Positions 19,316 to 57,362 of a stretch of DNA of 64,000 nt are shown here, one piece after another. Position 1 is the stretch's first letter. Each line of letters begins with the position of its first letter. This stretch comes from Lachnospiraceae bacterium (GTDB lineage: Bacteria > Bacillota > Clostridia > Lachnospirales > Lachnospiraceae), in assembly GCA_022799355.1 (NCBI GenBank), contig JAAWOG010000010.1, positions 5,766 to 69,765 of the forward strand. Direction: 5' to 3'. The notes below the pieces were generated by a model that worked only from the letters and a program-made list of their open reading frames with translations, was not told where the DNA came from and did not search any database. Position numbers and translations under genes: made by a program.

Positions 19316-20881
19316 ATGCTTCAGGAGATTAAAAGAAGGGTGAGTTTAAAAGGATCAAAAGCTGCGGTATGGATCGTATCTGTCTTTTTGCTTTTTGCGT
19401 TGCTGCCGCTTTTTGTGATTGCACATTTTAATTATCCGTGCAGTGATGACTTCGCGTATGCGGGGGCGATTTATTCCGGGATAAAAAACGGATGCAGTTT
19501 TTGGCAGATTTTGAGGGGCTGTTGGGAGACGGCAATGAGTTACTATAGAAACTGGCAGGGGCGCTATTTTGATGATATTGTTTCGGCATTTGGCGTGGGA
19601 ACGGCTGTTCCTGAATTTTACTTTTTGGGAACGTATTTGACACTGGTTCTGTTTGTTATGGCATGTATTGGCTTTGTAAGGACGGTTGCATACAGGCTGT
19701 GCCGTTGGGACTCAGATATTTCCTGGATTGTTTCAATGTTGATAACGGCGATGCTGGTATTATATGTGCCATATCCGTCGGAGGCTTTTTATTGGTATGT
19801 AGGGGCAACAGGCTACACCATGGCATATGCGCTTTTGCTGTTTCTGGGACAGACATTGATTGCCTTTTATTCTGCGAAGAAGGGATGTTCTTTTAAAAGA
19901 TGTCCCCAATCTTTGGATGAACATAGCGGATCAGACAGAGAAACAGAGGTTTCTTATCAGGCAAAAAAAACAGAGAAACAGAAAGTGTTGTTTGGTATAC
20001 TGGCGGTTATTTTAACGGCCATGGTTGGGGGAAGCAATTATTCCACAGGGCTTCTTACTGCGGAAATACTGGTAGTGGTATGTGTCCTTATGTTGGTGCT
20101 GAAAAAAAAATGCGGTTTTCTACTGTTTATTCTGGCGGAATATTTGCTTTGCTTTGTGAAATTTAATGCGTTATCCTCCGGAAATAATGCAAGGATGGGG
20201 AATGTGGAGAGCCTGGGTGCTGTGGGAAGTATTTTGGCATCTCTTAGCCAGGGGGCAGTTTTTTTGAAAGAGTGGTTTCGTTTTCCGGTATTTCTTTTTC
20301 TTGTGGTGGTACTTTTGCTGGGGGCTTATCAGTTGGCAAAGATGGAATATTCTTTCCGGCTGCCGGTTTTGGTGACGGTAATTTCTTTTGGGCTGTATTC
20401 TTCCATGATGACACCGGCATTTTTTGCAGGAGCCACATGGGGGCCCGGACGGTTGATTAATCTGGTATATTTCAGTTATTATTTTCTTTTAGCGGGAAAT
20501 CTGTTATATTGGACAGGGTGGGCAGTTCATAAATATGAAAGACTGCGGCAGATAGCAGGAAGGCAAATAAAAATACTGCCTGTATTTTTCTACTTTTTTG
20601 TGTTACTTCTGGTCAGTCTGAAAATATATGGACTGCAATCTACAAATAGTAGCAGTGCATTGTTGTCTTTGGTAAAGGGAGAGGCAGCAGAATATTTGAG
20701 AGAAAATGAGATTCGCTGGGAGATTTTTATGGATGATTCTATAAGAGATGCGGTAGTAGAGGATTTTTCCGTAAAACCGTATGTGTTGTATCATGATGAT
20801 ATTGTAGAGGATGAGACTGATTGGAGAAATCATGCTGTGGCGAACTTTTTTGGAAAAGATTCAGTCAAGTTGAAAAAATAA
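19316..20881 (+). CDS. Polytopic membrane protein, family A (paralog of 29084..30637; resembles what I recall as DUF6056)
   Basis: 521 aa with at least 10 TM segments. Conserved blocks shared with the paralog are HFNYPCSDDFAY, YRNWQGRYF, SEAFYWY, GGSNYSTG, TWGPGRLIN and a C-terminal soluble tail (..NHAVANFFGKDSV). Confidence 0.6.
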   Translation: MLQEIKRRVSLKGSKAAVWIVSVFLLFALLPLFVIAHFNYPCSDDFAYAGAIYSGIKNGCSFWQILRGCWETAMSYYRNWQGRYFDDIVSAFGVGTAVPEFYFLGTYLTLVLFVMACIGFVRTVAYRLCRWDSDISWIVSMLITAMLVLYVPYPSEAFYWYVGATGYTMAYALLLFLGQTLIAFYSAKKGCSFKRCPQSLDEHSGSDRETEVSYQAKKTEKQKVLFGILAVILTAMVGGSNYSTGLLTAEILVVVCVLMLVLKKKCGFLLFILAEYLLCFVKFNALSSGNNARMGNVESLGAVGSILASLSQGAVFLKEWFRFPVFLFLVVVLLLGAYQLAKMEYSFRLPVLVTVISFGLYSSMMTPAFFAGATWGPGRLINLVYFSYYFLLAGNLLYWTGWAVHKYERLRQIAGRQIKILPVFFYFFVLLLVSLKIYGLQSTNSSSALLSLVKGEAAEYLRENEIRWEIFMDDSIRDAVVEDFSVKPYVLYHDDIVEDETDWRNHAVANFFGKDSVKLKK

Positions 20882-20890
20882 GGTGGGATA

Positions 20891-22723
20891 ATGTTCAAAG
20901 AATTGCTTCAGGATAAAAAGAAGAAATATATAGTGATAGTTTTGCTGCTGGGAAGTTTTTTTGTGGCGTTAAAGTGTATTTTTGTCAGTCTTCATATGGA
21001 TGAAGAATATGCTGTCAGCCTGTCTTATCGGCTCCTCAGAGGGGACAGGCTTTTTACACAAGTATGGGATCCGCATCAGACATCGGCGTTTTTGATGGAG
21101 TTTCTGATGTGGATCTATCTGAAACTTTTTGATACAACAACTTATATTGTGGTCTGGGTGAGAGCAATAGGAGTATTGATACAGTTTGGGATAGCTTATT
21201 ATCTGTATCGGATGCTCTGCTATCTGCTTGAGCCGGAGTATAGTTTTTATTTATCCATACTGTATTTTAATTTATTGCCCAAAACGTATGTGATGCCTGA
21301 ATTTTCCAATATGATGGCATGGGGGCTGACGATGCTTTTGCTGAGCTTTTTCAGGCTGTCGATGCTGGAGAAGAAGGAGGCGGAAGATAGAAAACGGAAT
21401 TTGAAAATAATATTGACAACAATAGAGGCAGGGATGTGGCTCTCTTTTGTGGTACTTTCTTATCCGTCCTGTGTGCTGCTGTTTCCCCTTTTGTTGTGGT
21501 ATCTTTGGAAGTATGATGCTTACCGGAAAAGAACAATAGCCGTATTTGCGGGAACCTGTCTTGCGGCAGGGGGAGCGTATATGGCATATTTATTCAGCTA
21601 TATGACGCTATCGGAGTTGCTTGTCAATATTCGGAGCCTGCTGGCGTCCAACGGTTCTCACAGTGACGGAATAATCGGTAAATGCCAGATTTATGGACTG
21701 AATCTGGTGCCGTTGTTGTTATTTGGGACAGGATATTTGGCGGCGGCTGTTATTGTATATCAATGTATAAAGAGAAAGAAATTACGTGTTCATGAGGCGG
21801 GTATCAGGAAAGCGGGAGCAACAGATAAAGGAGGTCTTGCGGCAGATAGTAAATGCGGTTTTGGCATGGGATTGAAACATATGCCGGAAGAAGAAAAGCT
21901 TACTTTTTATTATATCTTCCTGATTACCTCTTTTGTATTGATGTTTCTGCACTGGATATTTATGTTATGGAAGTATGAGCGTTCTTATCCGTATACCATA
22001 TACTTTTTTATCTTTGCGCTTGCATTTTATTATGTAAGAAAACTGCCGGAAGAAAAAAGAATAGTAGCGGATCTCTGGCTGTGGTCAAATGTAGTAATGT
22101 ATATTGCTATTTTGATGCTTACGAACCTGACATTGTTTACATCCGTAAAATATCTATTGACAGGAGTGATCATGGGGGCGGCGGTCCTTTTGATCTATAC
22201 GAAGGAGAGACAGCCGGAGATTTACCGGAAGTATGCGGGCTGTTTTTTGATCGTATGGTGTTTTGTGGCAGTTTTTATAAAAGGCTGGGCTTATACGGAC
22301 AATGACGGATTGATGAAGAATATTACCTGTGTGGGAAATATCATCTCAGTGGGACCGGGAAAGGGCATTGTCACGGAGTATATGCAGGGGTATATGGCGG
22401 AGTGCAGCCATGAGGAATTTGGGACATATATTGAACTGGGAGAGAGCCTGCTTGCGCTTGATACCAATACGATCTGTTATATGTATCAGGATGTCAATAT
22501 CGGTTCCTGTACCACGATCTGCACCCCATCCTTTGATGAGAATCTGCTGGATTATTGGGAAAGGAATCCTGACAAATATCCGGATGTGATAGCGGTGATG
22601 TGCTGGTATGGAGAACTGCAATGGGATCAGGAGAGCTGGATCATGCATTGGATCGAGAATGAATTTGGAGCAACGCAGGTGATCGACGGAAAGTACTTTA
22701 GATATTATATCAGGAGACCATAG
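20891..22723 (+). CDS. GT-C-like polytopic membrane glycosyltransferase (PMT_2/ArnT-like)
   Basis: 610 aa. The first loop carries the acidic motif SLHMDEEYAVSLSYRLLRGDRLF...WDPHQTS. Many TM helices follow, then a C-terminal soluble domain of about 130 aa. Confidence 0.55.
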   Translation: MFKELLQDKKKKYIVIVLLLGSFFVALKCIFVSLHMDEEYAVSLSYRLLRGDRLFTQVWDPHQTSAFLMEFLMWIYLKLFDTTTYIVVWVRAIGVLIQFGIAYYLYRMLCYLLEPEYSFYLSILYFNLLPKTYVMPEFSNMMAWGLTMLLLSFFRLSMLEKKEAEDRKRNLKIILTTIEAGMWLSFVVLSYPSCVLLFPLLLWYLWKYDAYRKRTIAVFAGTCLAAGGAYMAYLFSYMTLSELLVNIRSLLASNGSHSDGIIGKCQIYGLNLVPLLLFGTGYLAAAVIVYQCIKRKKLRVHEAGIRKAGATDKGGLAADSKCGFGMGLKHMPEEEKLTFYYIFLITSFVLMFLHWIFMLWKYERSYPYTIYFFIFALAFYYVRKLPEEKRIVADLWLWSNVVMYIAILMLTNLTLFTSVKYLLTGVIMGAAVLLIYTKERQPEIYRKYAGCFLIVWCFVAVFIKGWAYTDNDGLMKNITCVGNIISVGPGKGIVTEYMQGYMAECSHEEFGTYIELGESLLALDTNTICYMYQDVNIGSCTTICTPSFDENLLDYWERNPDKYPDVIAVMCWYGELQWDQESWIMHWIENEFGATQVIDGKYFRYYIRRP

Positions 22724-22725
22724 AA

Positions 22726-23784
22726 ATGGGAGAGAACAGAAATTCCGGATATCAGTTTTATATAGACATATTGCGGATTATAGCCTGTTTCAGCGTGATC
22801 ATGCTTCATGCATCGGCACAGGCGTGGTATAGCCTGCCGGTGGACAGCTTCGGATTTAAGGTTGCCAATTCCTATGATGCATTGTTTCGATTTGGTGTGC
22901 CGGTTTTTGTGATGATCAGCGGGGCGCTGTTTCTTGCACCTGAGAAGGAACCGGATGTGAAAAAGCTCTATCGCCATAATATCCTGCGGCTGGCCATTTT
23001 GTATATATTTTGGTCCTGCTTATACGGGCTGATGGACTGCAGGGGATTTGATCCTGCCGGGATCGGATGGAAGGATGTTTTGAGAGAGATGATTCTGGGG
23101 CGGTATCACTTGTGGTTTTTGCCGATGATTATTGGGATTTATGTGTTGCTGCCTGTTTTAAAGGTGTGGCTCCGAAATGCGTCTAAGAAGAATATAGAGT
23201 ATTTTTTGCTGTTGTTTTTTGTCTGTCAGATCTTATGTGAGACGATCAGAGCAATCTGTGCTTCCGGTATGGCGGACTATGTGCTGAATCTTTTTCAGCC
23301 GGAGATGGTGTGCAGTTATCTGGGGTATTTTGTGCTTGGATATTATCTGGTGCATATCGGCGTCGATAAGAGATGGCATAAATTTATATATGTGGGCGCA
23401 CTGGCAGGAGGAGTTTTAAATATTGTGCTGGGAAACTATCTGGCAGAACGTGCCGGAGAACCTACCGGAGCAATCTACGACAGCTTTGGACTGTTTACGG
23501 CATTGATTTCCGTGGCACTTGTAATATGGGCGAAGGAGACTTTTTCACGAAAGGCTTTCGGTGCAGGGATGGAGAAGGTTTTTCATGAAATTTCCGCGGC
23601 TACATTGGGAATTTATGTGATGCATGTAGGATTGATAGAGATTTTGGAAGTCCGGGGGATTCATAGCCAGATGGTATCGCTTGTTTTTGGGATACCGTTT
23701 CTTGCGGTGATATGTTTTATCTGCTGTTTTGCGGTCAGTGCAGTGCTTAGGCGCATTCCGATTGTCGGGAAATATATTTGTTAA
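22726..23784 (+). CDS. Acyltransferase family 3 membrane O-acyltransferase (OafA/WecH-like)
   Basis: 352 aa. YIDILRIIACFSVIMLHA, FRFGVPVFVMISGALFL, HLWFLPMIIGIYVLLP, about 10 TM segments. Confidence 0.85.
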   Translation: MGENRNSGYQFYIDILRIIACFSVIMLHASAQAWYSLPVDSFGFKVANSYDALFRFGVPVFVMISGALFLAPEKEPDVKKLYRHNILRLAILYIFWSCLYGLMDCRGFDPAGIGWKDVLREMILGRYHLWFLPMIIGIYVLLPVLKVWLRNASKKNIEYFLLLFFVCQILCETIRAICASGMADYVLNLFQPEMVCSYLGYFVLGYYLVHIGVDKRWHKFIYVGALAGGVLNIVLGNYLAERAGEPTGAIYDSFGLFTALISVALVIWAKETFSRKAFGAGMEKVFHEISAATLGIYVMHVGLIEILEVRGIHSQMVSLVFGIPFLAVICFICCFAVSAVLRRIPIVGKYIC

Positions 23785-25652
23785 TATACAATATAAACAT
23801 AAATATGATACCAGCTATCTTCCGTCTCAAAAGGGGCTTCCTGCAACAGAGAAAGCCCTTTTTCTTCCGCGTTCATCAGATAAGCGGCAGAAAAGATATA
23901 CTTACAGTTCAGTTCTTTCAGCTTATCGATATTCAGGTCAAGATCATAGACCACACTGTTCCATTTTTTCTCAAAGGTATAGTAATTTGCCTGTTCTGCT
24001 GTGGTGATATAACAACGGTTTCCCCAGTTGTCAAAAAAATCTCTGACATAGTCGTTTTTTTTCAGTTCACCCTCCATAATTTCACGGAAAGTGTGTTTAT
24101 ATTCCAACGGATAATTATTGGAATAGCCGTCCAGACAGTAAAAACCATTGTAAGCGGCAGCGGCAGGGTAGATACCGACACTGATAACACGATAGTTTTC
24201 CTGAGGTTCTCCGATAGCCATATTGATCTGGCTGAAAATATCTTCCGCGAAGAATTTATCCCAGTCAAGAGCGTAGTAATCACTGCCCTTCAGCAGTTTT
24301 GACAGGTTGGGGCGGAGCGGGGAATGAAGCAGTATGGTGATGCCCCAGATTCCTGATACGGCGAAAATAATAACATGTATCAGGAGGGCTTTTCGGTAAT
24401 TTACAGAAACGGAATGTTTAGCATAAGAGGCAGGCTCTGTTCCGGTTTTCCATATATCCGCCAAAAAGCTGAAAAGATATCCTGCCAGAATACACCAAGC
24501 TGTCGGCAGTAGCCAGCAGATGCGGTCCAGGTTAAATGTTTTCAGGATTCCGCCCGAGGTATTTCTGAGTTCTGTGATATAAGATCCATGATAAAAAGCG
24601 TAAAATAAGCAAACAATAAAAATAAAAAGCAATATCCGAAAAGCGTTTAACAAAGTTCGCCGGTTGCTTTGTAAATAAAGGGATTCTTTTTTGCCGGCAG
24701 AACAAAATACTATCAGGCAAAAAACGAAAAGGAAAAAGACAACGGTGTGGTAACTCTGTGCGTAGGAGATCCCCGTTGTAAATGCCTCTTTGAAATAGTC
24801 AGAAAAATTCTGAGGGGAGAGCAGCATTTCGGATTTGTGACTGATATAGGTGGTTTCAGGAAAAAGAACCTGCCTGATCAGTCCTAAATTTGTTATGATA
24901 TATGTTATCAACAGGACAGCAAAGGAGAGCCAGGGAGAGAGAGAAATCTGTCTTTTGGCATGAAGCGCCCTGTATGTTTCGGAAAGCGCAAATATTCCGA
25001 GTATGAACAGGCAGGCGAAGCCAACCAGTACCAGAGAGGAGGAGGCAGCGTAAAATACGATTATAAGGTAACAGGGAAAGCTGCTGCGGCAAAAAATCCT
25101 CGGAATATTTCCGAAAGAGGGGGAATGAGAGCTCTTATCGGTATCTTTCAAAGAAATTTCGCTGCTGAAAAGTGAATGCACAGCATAAATCAACAGAGGC
25201 TGTCCGGGAATGCAAAGCCCATATACCGGATAAAATGGCAGCAGCATAAAAACAACAGCAATCGAAAAAGAAATAAATTCTTTTTCTGTAAGCTTTATCA
25301 AAAGCATATACGTGCCGAGAAAGGCCGTCATGTATATGATCCATTGAGAGATCATAAAAGCGGTAAAAGGGCTGCATATCACATAAAGCAGTACAAACAG
25401 CGGCGCCGGAGGGACTGCTCCTGCGGCAGGAAGTCCGTTCATGATCTCAGGATAGATTCGGATATCAGTGAATAAATATCTGGCGGTCAGCAGGTAGCTG
25501 AAAAGCTCACCGTCTAACTGGTCATGGTAGGTAATGATGCTTCCTGTGCCCAACAGCAGAAAAGGAACCATAAAAAGGCAGGACAAAATAAGTCCCAGTC
25601 CAAGATAACAATTTTTCTTATGTGTATGATACAGAGATAACAATTTATTCAT
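23781..25652 (-). CDS. Large polytopic membrane protein with a C-terminal extracytoplasmic domain (possibly DUF6044-like)
   Basis: 623 aa on the minus strand. The N-terminus is ..GTGSIITYHDQLDGELFSYLLTARYLF, followed by at least 11 TM segments. The C-terminal soluble part is ..GIYPAAAAYNGFYCLDGYSNNYPLEYKHTFREIM... Its stop overlaps the stop of 22726..23784 (shared TTAA at 23781-23784). Confidence 0.6.
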   Translation of the reverse strand: MNKLLSLYHTHKKNCYLGLGLILSCLFMVPFLLLGTGSIITYHDQLDGELFSYLLTARYLFTDIRIYPEIMNGLPAAGAVPPAPLFVLLYVICSPFTAFMISQWIIYMTAFLGTYMLLIKLTEKEFISFSIAVVFMLLPFYPVYGLCIPGQPLLIYAVHSLFSSEISLKDTDKSSHSPSFGNIPRIFCRSSFPCYLIIVFYAASSSLVLVGFACLFILGIFALSETYRALHAKRQISLSPWLSFAVLLITYIITNLGLIRQVLFPETTYISHKSEMLLSPQNFSDYFKEAFTTGISYAQSYHTVVFFLFVFCLIVFCSAGKKESLYLQSNRRTLLNAFRILLFIFIVCLFYAFYHGSYITELRNTSGGILKTFNLDRICWLLPTAWCILAGYLFSFLADIWKTGTEPASYAKHSVSVNYRKALLIHVIIFAVSGIWGITILLHSPLRPNLSKLLKGSDYYALDWDKFFAEDIFSQINMAIGEPQENYRVISVGIYPAAAAYNGFYCLDGYSNNYPLEYKHTFREIMEGELKKNDYVRDFFDNWGNRCYITTAEQANYYTFEKKWNSVVYDLDLNIDKLKELNCKYIFSAAYLMNAEEKGLSLLQEAPFETEDSWYHIYVYIVY

Positions 25653-25788
25653 AGCATTATATTAATAAGGAAAGATTGGGATGTCAACTATAAATCAGCC
25701 TTTCCAGACCAGGCTGATGATTTAAGATGGAAAAACAACGGTACAGGCAGAGGGGGATAAACGATGGGCGTCCATTTATGAATTAACA

Positions 25789-25817
25789 TTGAAATAATAA
25801 ATGAGATAAGTTATAAT
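25789..25817 (+). promoter_or_regulatory. Near-consensus sigma-A promoter for the CotH-VTC-DUF4956 operon
   Basis: TTGAAA (25789-25794), a 17-nt spacer, and TATAAT (25812-25817), 94 nt upstream of ATG 25911. The leader contains the palindrome TTCCATAT-n8-ATATGGAA (25846-25869). Confidence 0.6.
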
Positions 25818-25910: not shown

Positions 25911-27674
25911 ATGGAGGTGAGTTTCATCAGTCAGTCTAAAAAAATTACGGCAGGATTTATATTACTTTTAACAGTTATAATGGGGGCATTTTTGACTGGT
26001 GATTCTCAAAGAACTGTACATCTTGGCTTTTCTGAAAAGCCGGGATATTATGACGAGGTTATTGAACTGAAAATTTTGGGAAGCGATGGAAACAGGGTAT
26101 ATTATACTCTGGATGGGAGCGATCCCGGAACGGACGGAATATTATATGAACCGGATAAGCCGATTATACTTACGGATGCCAGTGCCAATCCGAATGTTTA
26201 TTCGGCGAGAACGGATACTTCTACCGCGTTTCTTAGTGATCTGGTAGAGACATATTCATCGGGAGCGGAGGAACCCGGATACACGGTTCCCGATTATCCT
26301 GTTGACAAATGCAATGTGGTTCGTGCCGCTGCTTTTGATAAAAAGGGAAATTGCCTTGATACGATAACAGGTGTATATTTTGTGGGATTTCAGGATAAGA
26401 TCGGTTATGATAAAATATATACCGCCTCGATTGTAACAGATCCGGATAATCTGTTTGATTATGACAGGGGGATTTATGTTACGGGAAGTACGTTTGAGGA
26501 AGCAAAAGATACCATTTTTGGTTCCGACGGCGAGGGGAATGATTCGGTTTTGGAACATCGTTCCTGGTACTGGTGGACGTCAAACTACAGTAACAGAGGA
26601 ATCGAGTGGGAAAGGGAAGCGGTAGTAACCATTTTTGATGAGGGAAAAGAGCAGGTTTTGTCAGAAAACTGTGGTATCAGAATACAAGGCGGGGGCAGTA
26701 GGGGAATGCTGCCGAAAAGCATTGGCTGCTATGCGAGAAGAGATTACGGAGGAAGCTATAATTTTCAGACGCCATTGTTTCAGGAAGAGATATATCCTCA
26801 TAAGTTTGTCTTTTTTTCCGGTGGTGATGATAATGTTTTTAAATTAATGGATTATCTGGCGAATACAATGGAAAAGGATCTTGCTTTTTCCACGATGGAT
26901 TTTATTCCCTGCGCGGTTTTTCTGAACGGGGAATACTGGGGAGTTTATTATATGACGGAAAATTACAACCGTGATTTTATCAGCAGCCACTATAATGTGG
27001 AAGAGGATAATGTGATCATGGTAAAGAATGGTGAACTGGCAGAAGGAAAGGGACAGGAGGTAAGGCTTTTTGAGGAAATGGTGTCATTTATTGCCGGTAA
27101 TGACATGACACTGGAGGAAAATTATGAGCGGGCGTGCCGTCTGATCGATGTAGACAGTTACATAGATTACTATGCGGCACAGACATATATTGCGAGATAT
27201 GGTGACTGGCCCGGGGGAAACTATGCGGCGTGGAGGACAAGAAAGAGCGAAGGTTCTGCCTATGGAGACTGCAGGTGGAGATGGATGCTTTTTGATGTGA
27301 ATTCCGGAGCATTGGCTGTTGATATGGTGGAGGCGGATATATTTGTGAGTATTCCGCAGAGTGATGTGGTGTTTCAGTCATTGTATCAAAATGAAGCGTT
27401 TCGGGCAAAATTTGCCGAAAGGTTATTATATATAGGCAGAGAGATATATTCAGAGGAAAACTGTCAGGCTTTTCTGGAGGATTATGTGCAGAGGATGAGG
27501 GAGCCGGTTGCCGCAGGCAGCCTTCGGTTTTATAATGATGCGCGAAGAGAGGAATTTGACAGGAATGTTGAAAATATCAGTTTGTTCTTTGAGGGAAGAT
27601 ATGATGCCATATGGAGTTCGCTGACAGAGAACATGGGAGAAGAATGGCTTAGAAAAAATGGAATACAGAAATGA
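25911..27674 (+). CDS. CotH kinase-family protein with an N-terminal signal anchor (exported)
   Basis: 587 aa. TM anchor ITAGFILLLTVIMGAFLTG. CotH-type blocks are CGIRIQGGGSRGMLPKSIGCYARRDYG, CAVFLNGEYWGVYYMTENYNRDFI and VDSYIDYYAAQTYIARYGDWPGGNYAAWR. Confidence 0.8.
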   Translation: MEVSFISQSKKITAGFILLLTVIMGAFLTGDSQRTVHLGFSEKPGYYDEVIELKILGSDGNRVYYTLDGSDPGTDGILYEPDKPIILTDASANPNVYSARTDTSTAFLSDLVETYSSGAEEPGYTVPDYPVDKCNVVRAAAFDKKGNCLDTITGVYFVGFQDKIGYDKIYTASIVTDPDNLFDYDRGIYVTGSTFEEAKDTIFGSDGEGNDSVLEHRSWYWWTSNYSNRGIEWEREAVVTIFDEGKEQVLSENCGIRIQGGGSRGMLPKSIGCYARRDYGGSYNFQTPLFQEEIYPHKFVFFSGGDDNVFKLMDYLANTMEKDLAFSTMDFIPCAVFLNGEYWGVYYMTENYNRDFISSHYNVEEDNVIMVKNGELAEGKGQEVRLFEEMVSFIAGNDMTLEENYERACRLIDVDSYIDYYAAQTYIARYGDWPGGNYAAWRTRKSEGSAYGDCRWRWMLFDVNSGALAVDMVEADIFVSIPQSDVVFQSLYQNEAFRAKFAERLLYIGREIYSEENCQAFLEDYVQRMREPVAAGSLRFYNDARREEFDRNVENISLFFEGRYDAIWSSLTENMGEEWLRKNGIQK

Positions 27675-28347
27675 ACTGAAATTTATGGTATCTGATTCGG
27701 ATCTGGAAAGGATCAGGTATAGGCTTTTACCGCTGATGAAGCAGGATGAGCATCAGGGAATACGTGGATACCGGGTGAGCAGCGTTTATTTTGATGATAT
27801 TTACGATTCTTATTTATCTGAGAATGAAGCGGGGACAGATAACAGGAAAAAGTACAGAATCAGGTTGTATAACGGAGATTCGGAACTTATTCATCTGGAA
27901 AGGAAGTCTAAATATCGTGGAATGACCGGAAAAATGAAGCAGAAACTGACAAGGGAAGAGGGCGAATTTCTGATAGCCGGAAATTTGGAAGGGCTGCATG
28001 ATAAAATGGCATCTGAAGATGATTTTCTGCTCAGAGAAGTTTGCATGGAAATTTTGAGGAAAAAACTGAGAGCAAAATGCATTGTGGAATATGAGCGGTT
28101 TGCTTTTGTGGAGAGTACGGGTAATGTCAGGATAACATTTGACAGGAATGTATCCGGCAGCAGGCAGGTGGAGAGTTTCTTTGAAGAGGATATTGTCCAT
28201 ATGCCGGTTATGCCCAGAGGCTGGCATATACTGGAGATAAAATACGATGAACTTTTGCCGCACTATATTTTGCAGGCGGTCGACACAGGAACCCTGCGCA
28301 GACAGTCCTTTTCAAAATATTGTGCGGTGAGGCGGATTGTCGGGTAG
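27658..28347 (+). CDS. VTC-domain (CYTH/triphosphate-tunnel, polyphosphate-polymerase-like) protein, soluble
   Basis: 229 aa starting MEYRNELKFMV. Alternating basic/acidic beta-strand motifs are typical of tunnel metalloenzymes (YRVSSVYFDD, KYRIRLY, HLERKSKYRGMTGK, ILEIKYDE). The ATG overlaps the end of the CotH gene by 17 nt. Confidence 0.75.
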   Translation: MEYRNELKFMVSDSDLERIRYRLLPLMKQDEHQGIRGYRVSSVYFDDIYDSYLSENEAGTDNRKKYRIRLYNGDSELIHLERKSKYRGMTGKMKQKLTREEGEFLIAGNLEGLHDKMASEDDFLLREVCMEILRKKLRAKCIVEYERFAFVESTGNVRITFDRNVSGSRQVESFFEEDIVHMPVMPRGWHILEIKYDELLPHYILQAVDTGTLRRQSFSKYCAVRRIVG

Positions 28348-28363
28348 AGGGAGTGAGGATATC

Positions 28364-32990: not shown

Positions 32991-33133
32991 CATATAAACT
33001 TTTTGTAAAATTTCCGCATCCCAAATAAGAGAAACAGATTTCCGGAAAATTTGTTTGGAGAAAAAGCGATAACAAAGCGATCCCGCAGCAGCCTGGCAGG
33101 GGTTGAATGGATATAAAAGAAACGGAGGCAGAC

Positions 33134-34135
33134 ATGTTAAACAATAAAACAATTTTGATCACCGGAGGAACCGGGACTTTTGGAAAAGCTTTTGTAAGTT
33201 ATGTGTTAGAGCATTATGAGTCGAAAAAGCTGATCATCTATTCCAGGGATGAGTTCAAACAGTTTCTGATGAAGAATGAATTTCAGAAATATGCGGACAA
33301 ACTGCGCTTTTTTATCGGCGATGTGCGGGATAAAGAGCGGCTTGAGAGGGCGTTTGAGGATGTGGACTATGTGATTCATGCGGCGGCGATGAAGCAGGTG
33401 CCCGCCTGTGAGTATAACCCTGATGAGGCTATCAAGACCAATATCCACGGCGCCCAGAATGTGACGGCGGCGGCGTTGGATGCAGGCGTGAAAAAGGTGG
33501 TGGCGTTATCTACGGATAAGGCGGTGAATCCTGTGAATCTGTACGGTGGGACAAAGTTGGTATCGGACAAGCTGTTTATTGCGGCGAACGCCTATGCGGG
33601 GAAAAAGGAAACCTGCTTTTCCATAGTCCGTTACGGCAACGTGGCGGGCAGCAGGGGTTCCGTGATCCCGTTTTTTAAGAATATTCTGGACAATGGGGGA
33701 ACGGAACTGCCGATCACGGATTACCGCATGACTCGTTTCTGGATCAGTATCACACAGGGCGTGGAACTGGTGATCAAGGCGCTGGAAGAGGCAAACGGCG
33801 GCGAGACCTTTATTTCAAAAATTCCTTCCTTTAAGATTACGGATCTGGCGGAGGCGATGCTGCCGGGATGTAAGATGCCTGAGGTGGGGATCAGGGAAGG
33901 CGAAAAGCTGCATGAGATCATGGTGACGGAGGAGGATGCGCCCAACACCTATGAGTATGATAAACATTTTATTATTTTCCCGCAGATGGTCTGGAATAAC
34001 CGGCAGATGCCCAATCCGAACGGACTCGGGAAGAAAGTGCCGGAGAGATTTTCTTACAGTTCGGGCAACAATGAGCAGTGGCTGTCGGTGGAGGAGATTC
34101 GTGAACTTCTGCAGCATCTGGAGCTGGAACACTGA
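33134..34135 (+). CDS. pseB: UDP-GlcNAc 4,6-dehydratase (inverting), PseB/FlaA1 type
   Basis: The ORF track starts at 33107. ATG 33134 follows a GGAGG SD. MLNNKTILITGGTGTFGKAFV, IIYSRDEFKQ, FFIGDVRD, HAAAMKQVPACEYNPDEAIKTNIHGAQNV, ALSTDKAVNPVNLYGGTKLVSDKLF, VRYGNVAGSRGSVIPFF, MTRFWI, GEKLHEIM. Confidence 0.8.
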   Translation: MLNNKTILITGGTGTFGKAFVSYVLEHYESKKLIIYSRDEFKQFLMKNEFQKYADKLRFFIGDVRDKERLERAFEDVDYVIHAAAMKQVPACEYNPDEAIKTNIHGAQNVTAAALDAGVKKVVALSTDKAVNPVNLYGGTKLVSDKLFIAANAYAGKKETCFSIVRYGNVAGSRGSVIPFFKNILDNGGTELPITDYRMTRFWISITQGVELVIKALEEANGGETFISKIPSFKITDLAEAMLPGCKMPEVGIREGEKLHEIMVTEEDAPNTYEYDKHFIIFPQMVWNNRQMPNPNGLGKKVPERFSYSSGNNEQWLSVEEIRELLQHLELEH

Positions 34136-34137
34136 GT

Positions 34138-35379
34138 ATGCCTAAGATGGATCAAAACAGGAGAGCAAACTATATAACGTGCCTTGTTTTTGCGGCATGC
34201 CTGATCGGGTATTCTGTGCTGATGTACCGGCTGTTTTACCTGCAGGCTGTCCACTGCGGAACGAGAGAGCTGTATTTTTCCGATATCAAAGCTTATCTGG
34301 AGACGATTCTGGGTGTGGAGTGTGATTATGATTTTCCTTATCCGGTCTTTTTCTGGCTGGGGAGGTTTTTTCTGCGTTTTGTGAATGTGGCGGTGGCGGC
34401 TTCTCTGGCAGCTTCTTTGCTTAACTCATTGGGGATTGCCGTACTGTTTTACTATATGAACCGATCCATGGGGATATATGACAGGGAGAAGGGATTTTGC
34501 GGATATCGGGGACTTTTTTCAACGTTTTTGACATTCGGCATGTTTTTTGTTTCCATGCTGTACCTGCCGGGGCGAATACATCTGCCGGGTATCACAAACA
34601 GCTATCTTGGCGTCTTTACACCGAATCCGTATCACAATATCACTTATATGGCAACCAGGCCCTTTGCGATTCTGGCGTTTTTCCTCTATGTCAGGATTCT
34701 GGACTATTATGAGGAGAGAACGGATGCCGTGGAGTTTATCTGGTTTGGTCTTAGTCTTTTGCTGACGACTATGACAAAGCCCAGCTATACGCTGATACTG
34801 GTGTCTACGGCGGGGCTTGTTATGCTGTATCGGTTGTTCCGGCAAAAATGGAAGAATTTTAAACGTTCCTTTTATCTGGGACTTGCGTTTGTTCCCACAT
34901 TTATCGATCTGCTTTATCAGTTTGGCGGCGTGTTCGGGGAACATTCTCAGGCGGGTGAAATGGGCGGGATCGGATTCGGGATCGGCTCGGTGTGGAAGCT
35001 TTACACGAATAATATTCCGCTGGCGGTGCTGCTGGCGTTGGGGTTTCCTCTTTTGGTCCTTGCGTTTCATTTGAAGGAGATAAAGGCAAATACATTGTAC
35101 CGTTTTTCCTGGGCACAATTGGTTGTCAGCGCGCTGGAGTTGTTTTTGCTCTATGAGAACGGGCGGCGGTTTTCGGATGCGAACTTTTCCTGGGGATATA
35201 TGCACGGGCTCTTTTTTGTTTTTGTGACAAGCCTGATATTGCTGGCGGAAGATACGATGGAAAAGCGCGGAAAGAAATGGGCTTTGTGTATACAATGGGC
35301 TTTATACGGGATGCATCTGGCTTGCGGGATAGGGTATTTTCTGTATATCTGGGGCGGAAACGGTTTTCATGAGTTTTAA
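34138..35379 (+). CDS. Polytopic membrane protein, family C (tandem paralog of 35414..36676); function unknown
   Basis: 413 aa with at least 10 TM segments. Blocks shared with the neighbour are PNPYHNITYMATRPF / IWHNSTYIAMKMM, TMTKPSYTLILV / TAIKPSFLLVFA, and GRRFSDANFSWGYMHGLFFVF / GSRAGDGNFMWGYSFAILMIF. Confidence 0.55.
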   Translation: MPKMDQNRRANYITCLVFAACLIGYSVLMYRLFYLQAVHCGTRELYFSDIKAYLETILGVECDYDFPYPVFFWLGRFFLRFVNVAVAASLAASLLNSLGIAVLFYYMNRSMGIYDREKGFCGYRGLFSTFLTFGMFFVSMLYLPGRIHLPGITNSYLGVFTPNPYHNITYMATRPFAILAFFLYVRILDYYEERTDAVEFIWFGLSLLLTTMTKPSYTLILVSTAGLVMLYRLFRQKWKNFKRSFYLGLAFVPTFIDLLYQFGGVFGEHSQAGEMGGIGFGIGSVWKLYTNNIPLAVLLALGFPLLVLAFHLKEIKANTLYRFSWAQLVVSALELFLLYENGRRFSDANFSWGYMHGLFFVFVTSLILLAEDTMEKRGKKWALCIQWALYGMHLACGIGYFLYIWGGNGFHEF

Positions 35380-35413
35380 GGGCGAAAGCGGGAAAACAAA
35401 TATTTGAGGGAAT

Positions 35414-36676
35414 ATGGATCGATATAAAAAGTATTGTAATGCGAAGGGAATACTGCACATCCTTATTTTTGCTTACGGTCTCAGTATGGTGTTTTTATTT
35501 TATAAACAGACCGGATGGAGCGGCGGTGCCGTGTATGAATCGGATCTGCCGGTGCACATCAGGATGATCGTGGAGGACGGGTGGTATTACAGCCTGACGG
35601 CGTTTGTCTATAAAGCGTTTTATTCGGTGCCGGTCACGCTGCCCGGGGGAGCGGTTTTCGGGGACGCTGCGGTGGCGGTTTTCCTTGCACTCTGCGGTGT
35701 GGCATCGGTGTATCTGACGGCGGTGCTGCTGCGGGATATGGAGAAGGCGCCTGCAGCCGGAGAAAAGGGTGTGCCGTTGGAGCTTACCGCATGGCATTTG
35801 CTGGGCGGGCTGATCCTGAATCTGGTGATGCCCTGTTATGTGAGGGGGATTGCGGATGGCAGATATATCGGTATGGAATCAGCGTCTATCTGGCATAATT
35901 CAACTTATATTGCGATGAAAATGATGGGGCTGCTCTGCGTAATTTATTGCGGGCGACTCGCGAAAAAATACAGGGATGGGATAACAGGGAGAGAATGGCT
36001 GCTGTTTACGGGATATCTTTCCATCTGCACGGCGATAAAACCCAGTTTTTTGCTGGTGTTTGCCCCTGCGATGGCAGTATTTTTGCTGATCGATTTTTTG
36101 GATGGCCTGGGGCGGAAGTTATCCTTTAAAGCGGTATTTGGGAGAGCGTTTGTGTTCGGTTCCGTAGTATTTTTACCGCTGTTTGTGGTACTGTTTCAGA
36201 ATATGGTCTTATTTGGCTCGGATACCGGAAACGGATGGGAGGTACGTCCGGGATACGCGCTGTCCCTGCACAGCGGTTATCCGCATCTTTCAGCGATATT
36301 TTCGATTCTTTTTCCTCTTGCCATACTCGCGGCTTTTCTGAGAGAACTTTGGGATGACAGATGGTTTTCGGGAGCGTGGCTGATGGCGCTTATCGGCTTT
36401 CTGGAAGTATTCCTGTTCACGGAGACGGGCAGCAGGGCAGGGGACGGAAATTTTATGTGGGGTTACAGCTTCGCGATACTGATGATTTTTGCGGCAGCCC
36501 TGGTAAAATGGGCGCAGTTCGGAAAGAAGGTATTAAAAAAAGAATATCGCGCGGGGCATTTTTTCAGGACAGGATTTTTCGTCGGTTCAGGTTTGATACT
36601 TGGATGGCACCTGTACTGTGGGGTATATTTTTATATGAATTTACTTAGAGGCGTTTCCTATTACATGTGGGATTAA
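35414..36676 (+). CDS. Polytopic membrane protein, family C (tandem paralog of 34138..35379); function unknown
   Basis: 420 aa, collinear with the upstream gene (see the shared blocks there). Confidence 0.55.
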   Translation: MDRYKKYCNAKGILHILIFAYGLSMVFLFYKQTGWSGGAVYESDLPVHIRMIVEDGWYYSLTAFVYKAFYSVPVTLPGGAVFGDAAVAVFLALCGVASVYLTAVLLRDMEKAPAAGEKGVPLELTAWHLLGGLILNLVMPCYVRGIADGRYIGMESASIWHNSTYIAMKMMGLLCVIYCGRLAKKYRDGITGREWLLFTGYLSICTAIKPSFLLVFAPAMAVFLLIDFLDGLGRKLSFKAVFGRAFVFGSVVFLPLFVVLFQNMVLFGSDTGNGWEVRPGYALSLHSGYPHLSAIFSILFPLAILAAFLRELWDDRWFSGAWLMALIGFLEVFLFTETGSRAGDGNFMWGYSFAILMIFAAALVKWAQFGKKVLKKEYRAGHFFRTGFFVGSGLILGWHLYCGVYFYMNLLRGVSYYMWD

Positions 36677-36727
36677 GGACAGGAAGGCATCGAACGAAAC
36701 AAAATAAATACGGTAAAAGGAACAAAT

Positions 36728-38410
36728 ATGCTTTATATTTTATTAAACTGGCTGTACATTTTCATAACAACCCTGATCACCGGCTTTGGAATCCTGTTTC
36801 TTTTGCGGAAAGCCTTCGGCTATTCTCCCCGCAATATTCATACCTGTGTGATGACAGGGCTTGTGGCGCTTACTGCCTATGCGCAGTGGTTTTCTCTGTT
36901 CTACAGGGTAAATATTGAGGCAAATCTGATCCTGATCCTGGTTGATATCGTGATTTTTATTTTGCTGAGAAAGCCGCTTTGGCAGTTTTTGATCAGTTCG
37001 CTGAGAGAGGTAAGCAGAGGAAAAAAAATTGCTGTCTTTTTGCTGATCTTAGTCTGTGCCTATTTTACATCCAGAGGAAGTTATATATCCGATACCGGTC
37101 TGTATCATGCACAGTGTATCCGCTGGCTGGAGGAATATGGTATTTTGAAGGGGCTTGCCAATATTCAGTCCAGAGCGGCTTATAACAGTTCGGCGTTCTG
37201 CCTGTCGGCGCTTTACAGCATGAAATACATATTCGGGCAGTCCATGCATGCGGTGCAGGGATTTATGGCGCTTCTGCTTTGCGGCGTCTGTCTGGATATC
37301 GGGGCGGTTTTTAAACGGAGAACGCTGCTTCTTTCGGATTTTCTGCGGCTGGGGGCAATTTATTATCTGACGCTTCTGCACCGGGAAATCCTGTCTCCTT
37401 CTTCTGATTTTGCCGTTATGATCACGCTGTTTTATATTCTGATTAACTGGCTGGACCTTCTGGAGAGAAAGGAAGCGTCGACTGTGCCTTATGCGCTATT
37501 GTGTGTGGCGGGAGTTTACACGGTGACTTTGAAGCTGACCGCAGGACTGATACTGGTTCTGCTGGTAAAACCTGTGGTAATGCTGGTGCGGGAGAAGAAG
37601 TGGAAGGAAATAATAACATATGTTATGCTAGGAAGCATTGTGATAGCGCCTTTTTTGATACGGAATGTGATCATTTCCGGGTGGCTGATTTATCCGCTGA
37701 CGGCGCTGGACCTTTTTGATGTGGACTGGAAGGTGCCGGCAGAACTGGTAGATGCGGACTCTTACCAGATCAGGACCTGGGGGAAGGGGATTCATGAATA
37801 TGAATTGTACGGCGGTCCAACGAAGTGGTGGCCAAACTGGTTTAAGACCACGCTCTCCACTACGGAAAAAGGGCTGATCCTGGCGGACGGAGCGGCGCTT
37901 TTGCTGCTGATCGGGATGATTGTAAAGCAGGGGAAGGAAAAAAGAGCAAATGAGTGGGACAAGCTGCTTGTTATGATAACGGCGGCGGTTTCATTTTTGT
38001 TCTGGCAGTTCAGCGCGCCTCTTGTGAGATATGGGTATGCCTATGTATTATCGCTGGCGCTTTTGGTATTTGGAGAAATATATATTAGGTTGTCTGAGAG
38101 CAGAAGGCAGAGAATAATACTTATATTGATCAGTATGTTTTTCATATGGAAGGGAGCGACTCTGACACAGGGTATATGGTCCCAGCGGCTTTTGCCGTAT
38201 TATATTGCGCAGGCGGACTATGACCATAATGAGGGCGGCGAGGATGTCCGGGAGCATCAGGTAAACGGAATCACCTTCTATTATAATGTTATGGGGTATC
38301 ATAAACTGCCCGGCGGGGGCTCCATGTTTACGTTGCGGAGCGACAGGCTCGAGGATGGATTTCGTTATGAATATCATGACTGGAAAGAAATATTCGGAGT
38401 GGCTGAGTGA
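36728..38410 (+). CDS. Polytopic membrane protein (candidate polymerase/ligase-like); family uncertain
   Basis: 560 aa with at least 11 TM segments. A conserved-looking loop reads DTGLYHAQCIRWLEEYGILKGLANIQSRAAYNSSAF. A C-terminal soluble segment of about 80 aa follows. Confidence 0.5.
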   Translation: MLYILLNWLYIFITTLITGFGILFLLRKAFGYSPRNIHTCVMTGLVALTAYAQWFSLFYRVNIEANLILILVDIVIFILLRKPLWQFLISSLREVSRGKKIAVFLLILVCAYFTSRGSYISDTGLYHAQCIRWLEEYGILKGLANIQSRAAYNSSAFCLSALYSMKYIFGQSMHAVQGFMALLLCGVCLDIGAVFKRRTLLLSDFLRLGAIYYLTLLHREILSPSSDFAVMITLFYILINWLDLLERKEASTVPYALLCVAGVYTVTLKLTAGLILVLLVKPVVMLVREKKWKEIITYVMLGSIVIAPFLIRNVIISGWLIYPLTALDLFDVDWKVPAELVDADSYQIRTWGKGIHEYELYGGPTKWWPNWFKTTLSTTEKGLILADGAALLLLIGMIVKQGKEKRANEWDKLLVMITAAVSFLFWQFSAPLVRYGYAYVLSLALLVFGEIYIRLSESRRQRIILILISMFFIWKGATLTQGIWSQRLLPYYIAQADYDHNEGGEDVREHQVNGITFYYNVMGYHKLPGGGSMFTLRSDRLEDGFRYEYHDWKEIFGVAE

Positions 38411-40032
38411 GGATGAGGGGAGAGAAGAGAACAAGGATCATTGTACTCGTGCTTGCGGTTCTTTTTACGTTTATGCAGCTTGCGGGCTGGCAGATCAGTA
38501 TGCGTTACGGAACAAGCGTGCACAGAAATGGTATTTTTCAGAGCATCGGGATGCTGAACGGGTATCAGCTTGTTTTTGCGGCGGTTTTTGAGACGGCGTT
38601 CTGGTATGCCGTTATTGATTTTGCTTTTTATTTTCTTGGGAAGCGGAAGAGAAGGCGTGCATCGAAAGCGGAAATGCCGGGAAGGCGGATGTGGCTGACG
38701 GTTGGCGTGCTGCTGTTTTTTGGTCTGTTTATCGGACTGCTGGCATGCTGGCCGGGGATTTATTCCTATGACGCGCAGGGGCAGCTCGGGCAGGCAATGT
38801 ACCCGGAGACGGTATATACGATGCATCATCCGCTCCTGCACACACTGTTTATGGGAAAGATCATCACTTTCGGTTATCGGGTATCCGGGGAGAACCTCGG
38901 GGTGGGTATTTTGCTGCACAGTATTGTGCAGATGCTGATCTGTACGATGATTTTTACATATGCCGTTTATTTTATCAGAAAAGTGACAGGGAAGAACGGG
39001 CTGGCAGCGGCGGCTTTTTTGTATTACGCATTTTTCCCCGTAGTAGTCTTATTTTCTTTCTGTACCACAAAAGATGTGCTTTGCGGCGCATTTTTACATC
39101 TTATGGTGATCCTGACATATGAGCTGTATCAGGATGGGGAGGAGTTCTTTGCACGGAAAGGGAAAGTTTTTTTACTGATTCTTTCAGGTGTTCTGATGTG
39201 CCTGTTCAGAAATAACGGCGTTTATGCGGTGGCGTTGATGGCGCTTTTTGCCGTTATATTTTTCCGGCAGAATCTGAGAGCGGTATGTTTTATTTTGCTT
39301 CCGGTTATTGTATTATCCGTGTTTTCCAACAAAGGACTGCAGATAGTGCTGCAGGCAAGAGGCGCCAGCATGGTGGAAGCATCTTCCGTGCCGATCCAGC
39401 AGATCGCACGAGTGTATTATGAGGAGGGGGAGGCGGGCTTTACCGAGGAGGAGTTGGAACTGTTGTATCAGGCGGTTTCGGCGGAAACGTTGCTTGGATA
39501 TGATCCGACTACTTCTGATAGTGTTAAGAATTTCACAAATTTTGACGATGTTGTCATGGAACAAAAAGGTGCTTATCTGAAATTGTGGCTTGGGGTTGGA
39601 ATCAGGCATCCCGGGAAATATATTGCCGCTTTTCTGGATAACACTTATCAGGCGTGGTATCCCGGCACATCCATTATGAGATACCCGGAAAGCGGGGACT
39701 ATGATTATCTTGAGATAGAGGGGTTTGACACAGTAATTAAGGAACCGAAGATCCCGGGACTGTATGAGTTCTATGATAAGATTGCCGCGGATTATTTTTA
39801 TCAGAAGATTCCCGGATTACGTCTTCTGTTCTCCATTGGTGCAATGTTCTGGATCATGCTTTTTACATTTTTTTACGGAATCCGTAAAAAGGATGAGGGC
39901 GTTACCGCCGCTCTTTTGCTCACTTTGTGTTTTTGTGCCACCTGCTTTTTGGGACCGGTGGTTCTGGTGAGGTATTATCTGAATTTATTTTATTTGTTTC
40001 CGGTCTGCATCGCGTTTATATCCGGGAGATAA
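38407..40032 (+). CDS. Polytopic membrane protein (possibly DUF6020-like); function unknown
   Basis: 541 aa. The start overlaps the previous stop. The first external loop reads GIYSYDAQGQLGQAMYPETVYTMHHPLLHTLFMG. A central soluble insert (..VPIQQIARVYYEEGEAGFTEEELELLYQ..) sits between TM bundles. Confidence 0.5.
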   Translation: MRMRGEKRTRIIVLVLAVLFTFMQLAGWQISMRYGTSVHRNGIFQSIGMLNGYQLVFAAVFETAFWYAVIDFAFYFLGKRKRRRASKAEMPGRRMWLTVGVLLFFGLFIGLLACWPGIYSYDAQGQLGQAMYPETVYTMHHPLLHTLFMGKIITFGYRVSGENLGVGILLHSIVQMLICTMIFTYAVYFIRKVTGKNGLAAAAFLYYAFFPVVVLFSFCTTKDVLCGAFLHLMVILTYELYQDGEEFFARKGKVFLLILSGVLMCLFRNNGVYAVALMALFAVIFFRQNLRAVCFILLPVIVLSVFSNKGLQIVLQARGASMVEASSVPIQQIARVYYEEGEAGFTEEELELLYQAVSAETLLGYDPTTSDSVKNFTNFDDVVMEQKGAYLKLWLGVGIRHPGKYIAAFLDNTYQAWYPGTSIMRYPESGDYDYLEIEGFDTVIKEPKIPGLYEFYDKIAADYFYQKIPGLRLLFSIGAMFWIMLFTFFYGIRKKDEGVTAALLLTLCFCATCFLGPVVLVRYYLNLFYLFPVCIAFISGR

Positions 40033-57341: not shown

Positions 57342-57362
57342 AAACCAGGGAGTTGATATACT

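Follow-up and report, generated by a model that had tools for sequence, protein, structure and literature searches.

The window studied here, a 64-kb stretch of DNA from a Lachnospiraceae bacterium (contig JAAWOG010000010.1, positions 5,766 to 69,765), encodes 13 large polytopic membrane proteins, and most of these, together with two more encoded just downstream, look like glycosyltransferases (GT) of the GT-C superfamily, which fall into at least nine sequence families and would have their active sites outside the membrane. The locus is probably an expanded multi-component transmembrane glycosylation system that is grafted onto conventional glycan assembly, and the window forms the central part of a composite super-locus for surface glycans, which exceeds 85 kb and belongs to an uncultured gut Lachnospiraceae. 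This reading is built on the gene content, the folds of two families, the family memberships of others and a conserved neighbourhood, from which putative donors, acceptors and a division of labour are proposed. Genes are named by their start coordinates in the window.

Membrane proteins and the GT-C fold

An earlier note on this DNA listed 13 polytopic open reading frames (ORFs) that occupy about one third of it, and ORF listing with translation recovers all of them; with about 7,460 codons they take up 35% of the 64 kb. In start order they measure 556, 662, 521, 610, 623, 517, 771, 413, 420, 560, 541, 529 and more than 741 amino acids (aa), and all 13 have multiple hydrophobic segments (Table 1). 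Between 19316 and 40032, nine of them account for about 72% of the sequence. Polytopic proteins of at least 400 aa typically represent a few per cent of bacterial genes, and the proportion found here, 13 of about 50, is far above that. The first gene, placed before at 3951, has its first in-frame ATG at 3915, and gene callers take either start (556 or 544 aa); the last gene, 61777, runs off the window end and encodes 758 aa in full on an overlapping contig. BLASTP groups 19316 with 29084 (27% identity), 30675 with 61777 (35%) and 34138 with 35414 (26%), and leaves seven singletons. The soluble inventory is also as described before, with a GT4 enzyme (2093), a GT2 enzyme (60713), a GT52-like enzyme (56124), two GT2 enzymes that carry C-terminal transmembrane helices (6736 and 41732) and one GtrA protein. 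Pfam scans of essentially all ORFs of at least 170 aa add genes for nucleotide sugars, which are FnlABC-like genes, a UDP-ManNAc-dehydrogenase-like gene, two DegT aminotransferase genes, an N-formyltransferase gene and a heptose pathway.

The GT-C assignment is backed for most polytopic families, by the predicted folds of two and by family matches or weaker links for the others. Structural comparison, which the earlier note had proposed as a check, covered 20891 and 34138, chosen among the four families that match no described family, and it returned GT-C folds. The AlphaFold2 model of 20891, made from a 38-sequence alignment, has a mean predicted local distance difference test (pLDDT) score of 90.6 and a predicted TM-score (pTM) of 0.91, and its best 19 Foldseek matches in the Protein Data Bank (PDB) are all GT-C enzymes, namely STT3A/B, yeast Stt3, AglB, PglB, AftA and ArnT (probability 1.0, E from 2e-7 to 5e-3). 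The 34138 model (pLDDT 85, pTM 0.90) matches AftA with probability 1.0, an E of 0.015 and a TM-score of 0.49, and DPY19, AftB and Pmt1/2 with probabilities of 0.9-0.96. Both models are helical bundles, and transporter folds match them only at Foldseek probabilities below 0.35 and TM-scores below 0.2. A GT-C fold is thus predicted for 20891 and, more weakly, for 34138. The PDB entries matched by 20891 are the common structural top matches of known Gram-positive GT-C enzymes (Rismondo-Gillis-Gründling review, PMC8035078). The 20891 sequence has no WWD string and so lacks the WWDYG motif of the oligosaccharyltransferases STT3, PglB and AglB, to which its likeness is one of fold level only. The product of 20891 is 100% identical to a protein from a metagenome-assembled Lachnospiraceae genome.

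Profile searches with hidden Markov models (HMMs) give links of different strength to the other families, and those named in the earlier note fared unequally: DUF6056, DUF6044 and DUF6020 are found in 19316, 23781 and 38407, PMT_2 matches stay below threshold and YfhO is not recovered. 19316 belongs to the GtrC (STM0557) family, STM0557 being the gtrC gene of the Salmonella gtr LT2_I cluster (PMC2909390), and 29084 qualifies by paralogy only. PMT_2 matches 38407 at 24.4 bits, under the cut-off of 26.1, and it also has matches below threshold in 59127 and in the N-terminal part of 12665. 30675 and 61777 themselves have no Pfam match at E<0.1, YfhO (PF09586) included, while among 36 homologs of 30675 four match DUF6541, three PTPS_related, one DUF6044 (1.3e-7), one GT-C_AftD and one YfhO (E 0.063); the 781-aa paralog downstream reaches 17.6 bits with the YfhO model, whose cut-off is 28.5. 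In the 34138 family, hereafter family C, 5 of 39 homologs match a TMEM260-like O-mannosyltransferase model (best 3.7e-6). DUF6044, DUF6020, DUF6541 and PTPS_related are families that we take to be members of the GT-C clan. The only NCBIfam match among the membrane proteins is LIC_10190, for 36728, and a literature search on DUF6056, DUF6044, DUF6020, LIC_10190 and DUF8201 gave no functional study. Comparison of nine family profiles by hhalign joins 34138 with 35414 (100%), 38407 with 59127 (87%) and, weakly, 23781 with 30675 (29%, co-linear over the N-terminal core). The other links between families are insignificant, so a single recent common origin of the array is not supported.

An acidic motif in the first long loop, which follows a K/R-rich N-terminus and the first transmembrane segment, had been described for several families and is found in them; the orientation of the loops is predicted from the positive-inside rule only. 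The motif is SDDF in 19316 and 29084, D37-E-E within MDEEY in 20891, S48-D49 in 34138, ESD in 35414, SDE in 12665 and HDQLDGE in 23781, and where alignments exist its residues are invariant, for instance D37 of 20891 and S48 and D49 of 34138. In 30675, 38407, 59127 and 36728 a conserved aspartate instead follows the third or fourth transmembrane segment, in a later loop predicted to lie outside. Invariant residues are D213, H217, R220 and E222 in the 30675 family and D122, Y126, H127 and E135 of the predicted outside loop in 36728.

Donors, neighbourhood and flanking genes

The two polyprenol-phosphate GT2 synthases and the single GtrA reported earlier are present. 41732 matches the GtrB structure 5EKP over its full length and the ArnC structures at about 1e-33, and its best NCBIfam match is streptococcal PgfS (227 bits, under the cut-off of 500). 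6736 matches the DPMS structure 5MLZ (E 6e-11) and has AglJ and PpgS as its best NCBIfam matches. The GtrA gene is recognized by PF04138 on contigs that are 99.8-99.99% identical to the window. The locus would therefore provide for two sugar donors linked to lipid monophosphate and for one small candidate flippase, as proposed in the earlier note. These genes do not form a gtrA-gtrB-gtrC operon: GtrA adjoins only 6736, the GtrC-type genes lie 12-22 kb from either GT2 gene, and no GtrA gene adjoins 41732. A 55-aa ORF 5' of 41732, considered as a GacJ-like partner, was ruled out by the lack of any transmembrane segment.

The neighbourhood of these genes is conserved. When the family-C alignment was used to scan species-representative genomes, 80 Lachnospiraceae loci were identified, hosted by Acetatifactor, metagenome-assembled genomes (MAGs) labelled Roseburia or Blautia, Waltera, mouse isolates and rumen MAGs. 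Of the 80 loci, 51 have a DUF6020-like gene within 10 kb of their family-C gene; a GtrB-like GT2 gene and a PseC-like aminotransferase gene lie within that distance in 47 each, a DPMS-like GT2 gene in 40, a 59127-like gene in 38 and PseB in 29, and homologs of phosphoglycosyltransferase (PGT), Wzx, EpsG and NeuB in none. Among the loci, 55 reach 18 kb or more, and in these large polytopic ORFs number a median of 4 and a maximum of 9 per ~21 kb and take up to 70% of the DNA, a density that is biased by the selection of loci for having a family-C gene. This recurrence indicates that the GT-C array is a lineage-wide architecture, tightly linked to polyprenol-phosphate sugar synthases, and the conserved neighbourhood is the best contextual support for a putative three-component system of the GtrABC type. 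Strain comparison, also suggested before, shows that gene order in the closest species is retained across the core from 23781 to PseC and that the 19316/20891 end varies. Between these species PseB is 95-98% identical and the membrane proteins only 63-85%, and two contigs (L008 and L011), which are 99.4-99.5% identical over the shared left-hand region, have a 72%-identical allele in place of 19316.

The flanks, read from metagenome contigs that overlap the window with 99.97-100% identity, change the picture at both ends. The earlier note had recognized no Wzx, no clear Wzy and no PGT, which is correct inside the window, where the Wzx, Wzy, EpsG and Bac_transf models have no match among ORFs of at least 170 aa, and does not apply to the locus as a whole, since all three lie within 9.8 kb upstream and were missed by an edge effect. 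These 9.8 kb (contig L095, 1-9815) encode a Bac_transf PGT (199 bits), a FemAB-like acyltransferase, two GT4 enzymes, an EpsG-type polymerase (110 bits), a methyltransferase, a Polysacc_synt Wzx protein (67 bits) and a GT56 enzyme, so that positions 1-17407 of the window belong, as its 3' part, to a conventional Wzx/Wzy locus. The left operon ends at a strong terminator (17425-17462) with a 17-bp stem. Its last gene (15977-17407) encodes a 476-aa protein that has N-terminal and central transmembrane segments in a Wzz/CpsC-like layout and no Pfam match at E<0.01.

Downstream (contig L098, 13289-21017), the rest of 61777 is followed by two 30675-family paralogs of 781 and 500 aa and then by genes for a CMP-nonulosonate synthetase (CTP_transf_3, E 2e-27), an ATP-grasp protein, a HAD protein, NeuB (E 2.5e-85) and a PseG-like protein; the NeuB and CTP_transf_3 genes lie 6-9 kb past the window end. 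PseB, PseC, NeuB and a CMP-sugar synthetase, the set of a pseudaminic-acid-type pathway, are thus all present, split across ~35 kb, and PseH was not identified among these genes. 57363 is most similar to PglK, the flippase of lipid-linked oligosaccharides. The claim that most of the encoded chemistry happens outside the membrane is consequently too strong: the PglK-like exporter, PseB/PseC, NeuB and the CMP-sugar synthetase mean that substantial cytoplasmic chemistry is encoded too, with backbone synthesis, a nonulosonate pathway with its GT52-like transferase, and an ABC flippase. PseB and PseC may feed either an Arn-like lipid-linked amino sugar or the nonulosonate pathway only. The Arn-like role is downgraded to a possibility by the NeuB, CMP-synthetase and PseG-like genes downstream, and it is kept because related loci have PseB/PseC and a GtrB-like GT2 with no NeuB within 10 kb. 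The module of GT52-like enzyme, PglK-like ABC exporter and soluble GT2 recurs in two other loci (L038 and L053), where it adjoins a PseC-like gene; in the window, the polytopic 59127 sits between its ABC and GT2 genes. The module may be a unit for the transfer and export of nonulosonate.

Proposed system and competing explanations

In the proposed system, cytoplasmic enzymes (PseB/PseC, FnlABC-like proteins, the heptose pathway and those for a formamido sugar) would make the nucleotide sugars, and the membrane-anchored GT2 enzymes 6736, which is DPMS-like, and 41732, which is GtrB-like, would load single sugars onto polyprenol phosphate. Moving the lipid-linked sugars to the other side of the membrane would fall to GtrA and possibly to the PglK-like ABC exporter. 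There the GT-C enzymes, each specific for an acceptor or linkage of its own, would transfer the sugars to wall polysaccharide, capsule or surface protein, so that many acceptor-specific enzymes would share a few lipid donors. The backbone glycan would be built conventionally by the upstream PGT, Wzx and EpsG-type polymerase.

Systems of the GtrABC and CsbB-GtcA-YfhO type, which carry out O-antigen glucosylation in Salmonella and Shigella and glycosylation of lipoteichoic acid, wall teichoic acid and wall polysaccharide in Bacillus, Listeria, Lactococcus and Streptococcus (PMC8035078), share with the window a GtrA protein, a GT2 of GtrB/DPMS type and polytopic GT-C-like proteins that have an outside acidic motif and include the STM0557 family. 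Known genomes of this type have one to three GT-A/GT-C pairs, while here 13 to 15 GT-C-like proteins of at least nine families, several of them without a Pfam model, stand beside two GT2 enzymes and one GtrA, arranged as GT-C arrays and not as gtrA-gtrB-gtrC operons. The Arn pathway for lipid A aminoarabinose (ArnB, ArnC and ArnT) resembles the module at 33107-42751 in its logic, that is, a dehydratase with a DegT aminotransferase (40172 matches ArnB at 9e-92), an ArnC/GtrB-like GT2 and GT-C proteins. It differs in that the window has, in place of ArnA and ArnB, equivalogs of PseB and PseC, which may instead supply the NeuB pathway downstream, has no adjacent formyltransferase/deformylase pair, and belongs to a Gram-positive host without lipid A. 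The Pgf operon of Streptococcus mutans (PgfS, PgfE, PgfM1 and PgfM2) likewise combines a GT2 of PgfS type, with an epimerase gene after it, and GT-C membrane proteins that resemble YfhO and act outside, whereas the genes of the window are not equivalogs of it, come without adhesin genes, include many more membrane enzymes and are embedded in a polysaccharide locus. Capsule or exopolysaccharide loci of Wzx/Wzy type in Firmicutes are the counterpart of the left cluster and its upstream 10 kb, which hold a PGT, GT4 enzymes, EpsG, Wzx, a Wzz-like protein and nucleotide-sugar genes; the left cluster differs from them in its embedded poly-G-bearing GtrA, GT2 and GT-C decoration genes and in its fusion to a 45-kb GT-C-rich region.

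Several results weigh against this decoration system. HMMs of six families, searched against all PDB sequences, returned only chance matches (GTP cyclohydrolase, nanobodies and designed proteins), so that sequence comparison cannot place these six. As most hhalign links are insignificant, the GT-C status of 23781, 30675/61777, 38407, 59127 and 12665 depends on sub-threshold or indirect matches. 3915 has no GT-C link and no Pfam match at E<0.1, and 36728, for which 4,748 relatives were found, has no GT-C link either, no PDB match and hhalign probabilities below 17%; its 40 examined homologs give only isolated sub-threshold matches (DUF2142 at 0.0026 and the TMEM260-like model at 0.076). PseB and PseC could merely feed the NeuB/CMP-synthetase pathway, with the GT52-like protein as a cytoplasmic transferase. 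The presence of just two polyprenol-phosphate sugar synthases for 13 to 15 putative GT-C enzymes means that some of these may use undecaprenyl-diphosphate-linked oligosaccharides as donors.

This last imbalance also favours the main competitor, a somewhat unlikely one, in which the locus serves assembly and not decoration. A sizeable share of the membrane proteins would then be polymerases, ligases or oligosaccharyltransferase-like enzymes, acting on polyprenol-diphosphate-linked oligosaccharides that the GT4, GT2, GT52 and GT56 enzymes make in the cytoplasm and that Wzx or the PglK-like ABC transporter flips. The PGT, Wzx and EpsG genes upstream and the PglK-like exporter, which stands in the conserved GT52-ABC-GT2 module adjoining 59127, agree with it, as do the Wzy-like size of 34138 and 35414, which have no soluble domain, and the match of 4 of 21 distant relatives of 59127 to Wzy_C, the O-antigen ligase model. 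In the window itself, no protein gives a match at E<0.1 to Wzy_C, EpsG or O-ag_pol. Structurally, 20891 comes closest to oligosaccharyltransferases, yet their WWD(YG) motif is not in its sequence, and WaaL and SEDS structures do not appear in the Foldseek lists of 20891 and 34138. The family-C neighbourhoods in the 80 genomes also speak against assembly, as they hold GtrB-like GT2 genes but no PGT or Wzx.

An explanation of lower probability bears on the acceptor alone and, as far as the enzymes go, agrees with the proposed system. It states that the window encodes a Pgf-like extracytoplasmic protein O-glycosylation, the acceptors being surface or membrane proteins (Ser/Thr-rich disordered regions, adhesins or S-layer) in place of polysaccharides. 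The streptococcal YfhO-type GT-C enzymes PgfM1 and PgtC2 glycosylate proteins outside the membrane (PMC12041528), which speaks for it; so do the match of 41732 to PgfS, with a GalE-type epimerase gene after it as in pgfS-pgfE, the TMEM260-like protein O-mannosyltransferase model matched by family-C homologs, and the resemblance of 20891 to oligosaccharyltransferases and PMT-type enzymes. The PgfS score is, however, far under the equivalog cut-off, the window encodes no adhesin or Ser/Thr-rich protein as a candidate acceptor, and genes of polysaccharide type dominate the locus. It is very improbable that the orphan polytopic proteins are for the most part transporters or membrane proteins without a role in glycosyl transfer, merely co-located with glycan genes: the sequence searches gave no significant match to a solved GT-C enzyme and 36728 and 3915 lack a functional link, but the two modelled families find GT-C folds at probability 1.0 and transporter folds only below 0.35, Pfam and NCBIfam give a transporter match for none of the 13, and across the 80 genomes GtrB-like GT2 genes are conserved as neighbours.

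A transmembrane glycosylation system of this kind is known, and what is new here is its scale, with 13 to 15 GT-C-like genes of at least nine families for two donor synthases, the fold placement of two families without a model, and the finding that the architecture recurs in other Lachnospiraceae. In gut Firmicutes, immune recognition, susceptibility to phages and colonisation are all shaped by surface glycans, which are almost uncharacterised beyond a few model species. The locus and 55 related loci suggest that a major gut family relies heavily on glycosyl transfer outside the membrane, performed by mostly unnamed families. As a conjecture that we hold tentatively, the Lachnospiraceae GT-C arrays, which contain up to 9 genes in 21 kb and at least four families without a Pfam model, might be a combinatorial and partly poly-G phase-variable toolkit, whose acceptor-specific, outside-facing transferases share few polyprenol-phosphate sugar donors, one of them possibly a PseB/PseC-derived 4-amino-4,6-dideoxy sugar used in an Arn-like manner. 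If true, strain-level and within-population diversity of the surface glycans of a commensal would arise from this toolkit. For learning how many GT-C enzymes can share one donor, targets are offered by the conserved aspartates, the pair of lipid-sugar synthases and cultured relatives, among them strain 1XD8-76 and Acetatifactor muris.

Poly-G tracts and other features of the window

The window contains five runs of at least seven G (5975-5981, 7390-7396, 7827-7834, 8422-8428 and 13163-13169), all of them coding and in the left cluster. A comparison of contigs whose identity to the window is otherwise 99.4-99.99% over the shared region shows that four of the five vary in length: the tract at 5975 is always G7, while those at 7390, within the GT2 gene 6736, and at 13163, within 12665, are G7 or G8, that at 8422 is G7, G8 or G9, and that at 7827 ranges over G7, G8, G9 and G10. 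In the window, 12665 is frameshifted at its G7 tract and split into 181 and 483 aa, and G8, which is present in other contigs, restores an ORF of 662 aa; an exact look-up of the 483-aa C-terminal fragment gave no match, as gene callers take a later start. With each of these changes, the DPMS-like GT2, a methyltransferase, the start of an acetyltransferase or the 662-aa GT-C-like gene passes from an intact to a truncated form or back. This looks like slipped-strand phase variation of glycan-modification genes, which would make them candidate contingency genes; assembly error or fixed strain polymorphism could possibly account for the length differences instead. Phase variation in gut commensals is mostly described as DNA inversion, and the switching poly-G tracts suggest that a commensal Firmicute has contingency loci of the Campylobacter kind.

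Table 1. Coordinates of the main features of the window and the matches that identify them
Feature	Coordinates	Strand	Match or basis
Polytopic protein, 556 aa, no family assigned, 5' of GtrA and DPMS-like GT2	3915..5585	+	~14 hydrophobic segments
GtrA-family small membrane protein, putative polyprenol-phosphate-sugar flippase	6315..6719	+	PF04138 GtrA_DPMS_TM on near-identical contigs
GT2 with two C-terminal transmembrane helices, DPMS/AglJ-like polyprenol-phosphate sugar synthase	6736..7701	+	Glycos_transf_2 E 1e-25
Polytopic GT-C-like gene, 181 + 483 aa as split here	12665..14652	+	PMT_2 E 1.8e-4, below threshold
GtrC-type GT-C glycosyltransferase (DUF6056, now GT_STM0557_N)	19316..20881	+	PF19528 37.1 bits, cut-off 27
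GT-C-fold glycosyltransferase (predicted), family without Pfam model, C-terminal alpha/beta domain ~467-610	20891..22723	+	AlphaFold2 and Foldseek
Acyl_transf_3 membrane acyltransferase, likely glycan O-acetyltransferase	22726..23784	+	PF01757 E 4e-38
DUF6044 polytopic protein, ~185-aa C-terminal extracytoplasmic domain	23781..25652	-	PF19510 E 6e-112
Accessory trio: CotH-like, VTC (polyphosphate polymerase-like), DUF4956	25911..29038	+	
GtrC-type paralog of 19316	29084..30637	+	BLASTP 27% over 531 aa, E 2e-48
YfhO/DUF6541/PTPS_related-like protein, 771 aa; N-terminal extracytoplasmic domain of ~120 aa and C-terminal domain	30675..32990	+	
PseB, inverting UDP-GlcNAc 4,6-dehydratase	33107..34135	+	TIGR03589 533 bits, cut-off 408
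GT-C-like membrane protein, 413 aa, family without Pfam model	34138..35379	+	AlphaFold2 and Foldseek
Paralog of 34138	35414..36676	+	BLASTP E 1e-19; hhalign probability 100%
LIC_10190 / DUF8201 polytopic protein	36728..38410	+	NF047510 E 4e-89; PF26626
DUF6020 polytopic protein, PMT_2-like	38407..40032	+	PF19484 E 3e-30
PseC, UDP-4-amino-4,6-dideoxy-AltNAc transaminase	40172..41452	-	TIGR03588 474 bits, cut-off 423.5
GtrB/ArnC/PgfS-type polyprenol-phosphate glycosyltransferase	41732..42751	+	PDB 5EKP E 3.5e-72
GT52-like, PglK-like ABC exporter (57363), 59127 (PMT_2-like polytopic), soluble GT2	56124..61729	+	
Paralog of 30675, cut by window end	61777..64000	+	

The G+C content is 31-33% over the first 6 kb and 44-50% from 18 kb on, and by its composition the left cluster, of serotype type, looks foreign or fast-evolving. 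Of the 2-kb bins, only that of 50-52 kb, which holds a long minus-strand gene, has a slightly negative GC skew; the skew is positive in the rest. Between the two glycan clusters, at 17769-19243, lie fragmented remnants of a BrxC/BrxD-like ATPase in ORFs of 83, 142 and 154 aa. The same junction in L008 and L011 has intact BrxC/D-like genes and a DEAD/ResIII helicase, which indicates that the strain of the window holds a decayed defence-like module.

A heptose nucleotide-sugar pathway is found at 44868-49587, with an HddA-like kinase, a fused nucleotidyltransferase/GmhB-type phosphatase, a short-chain dehydrogenase/reductase, a SIS-domain (GmhA-like) protein and a transaldolase-family protein, and its gene content suggests that heptose or a modified heptose may be present in the glycan. 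Four CotH-family proteins are encoded, one of them in the trio at 25911-29038 and the others at 50303-52780 (minus strand), 52740-54437 and 54421-56106; two have Fn3_assoc/CHB_HEX_C domains and one has a lamin-tail domain. The set of CotH, VTC and DUF4956 is a known and unexplained accessory trio of Gram-positive pel loci (PMC7112168).

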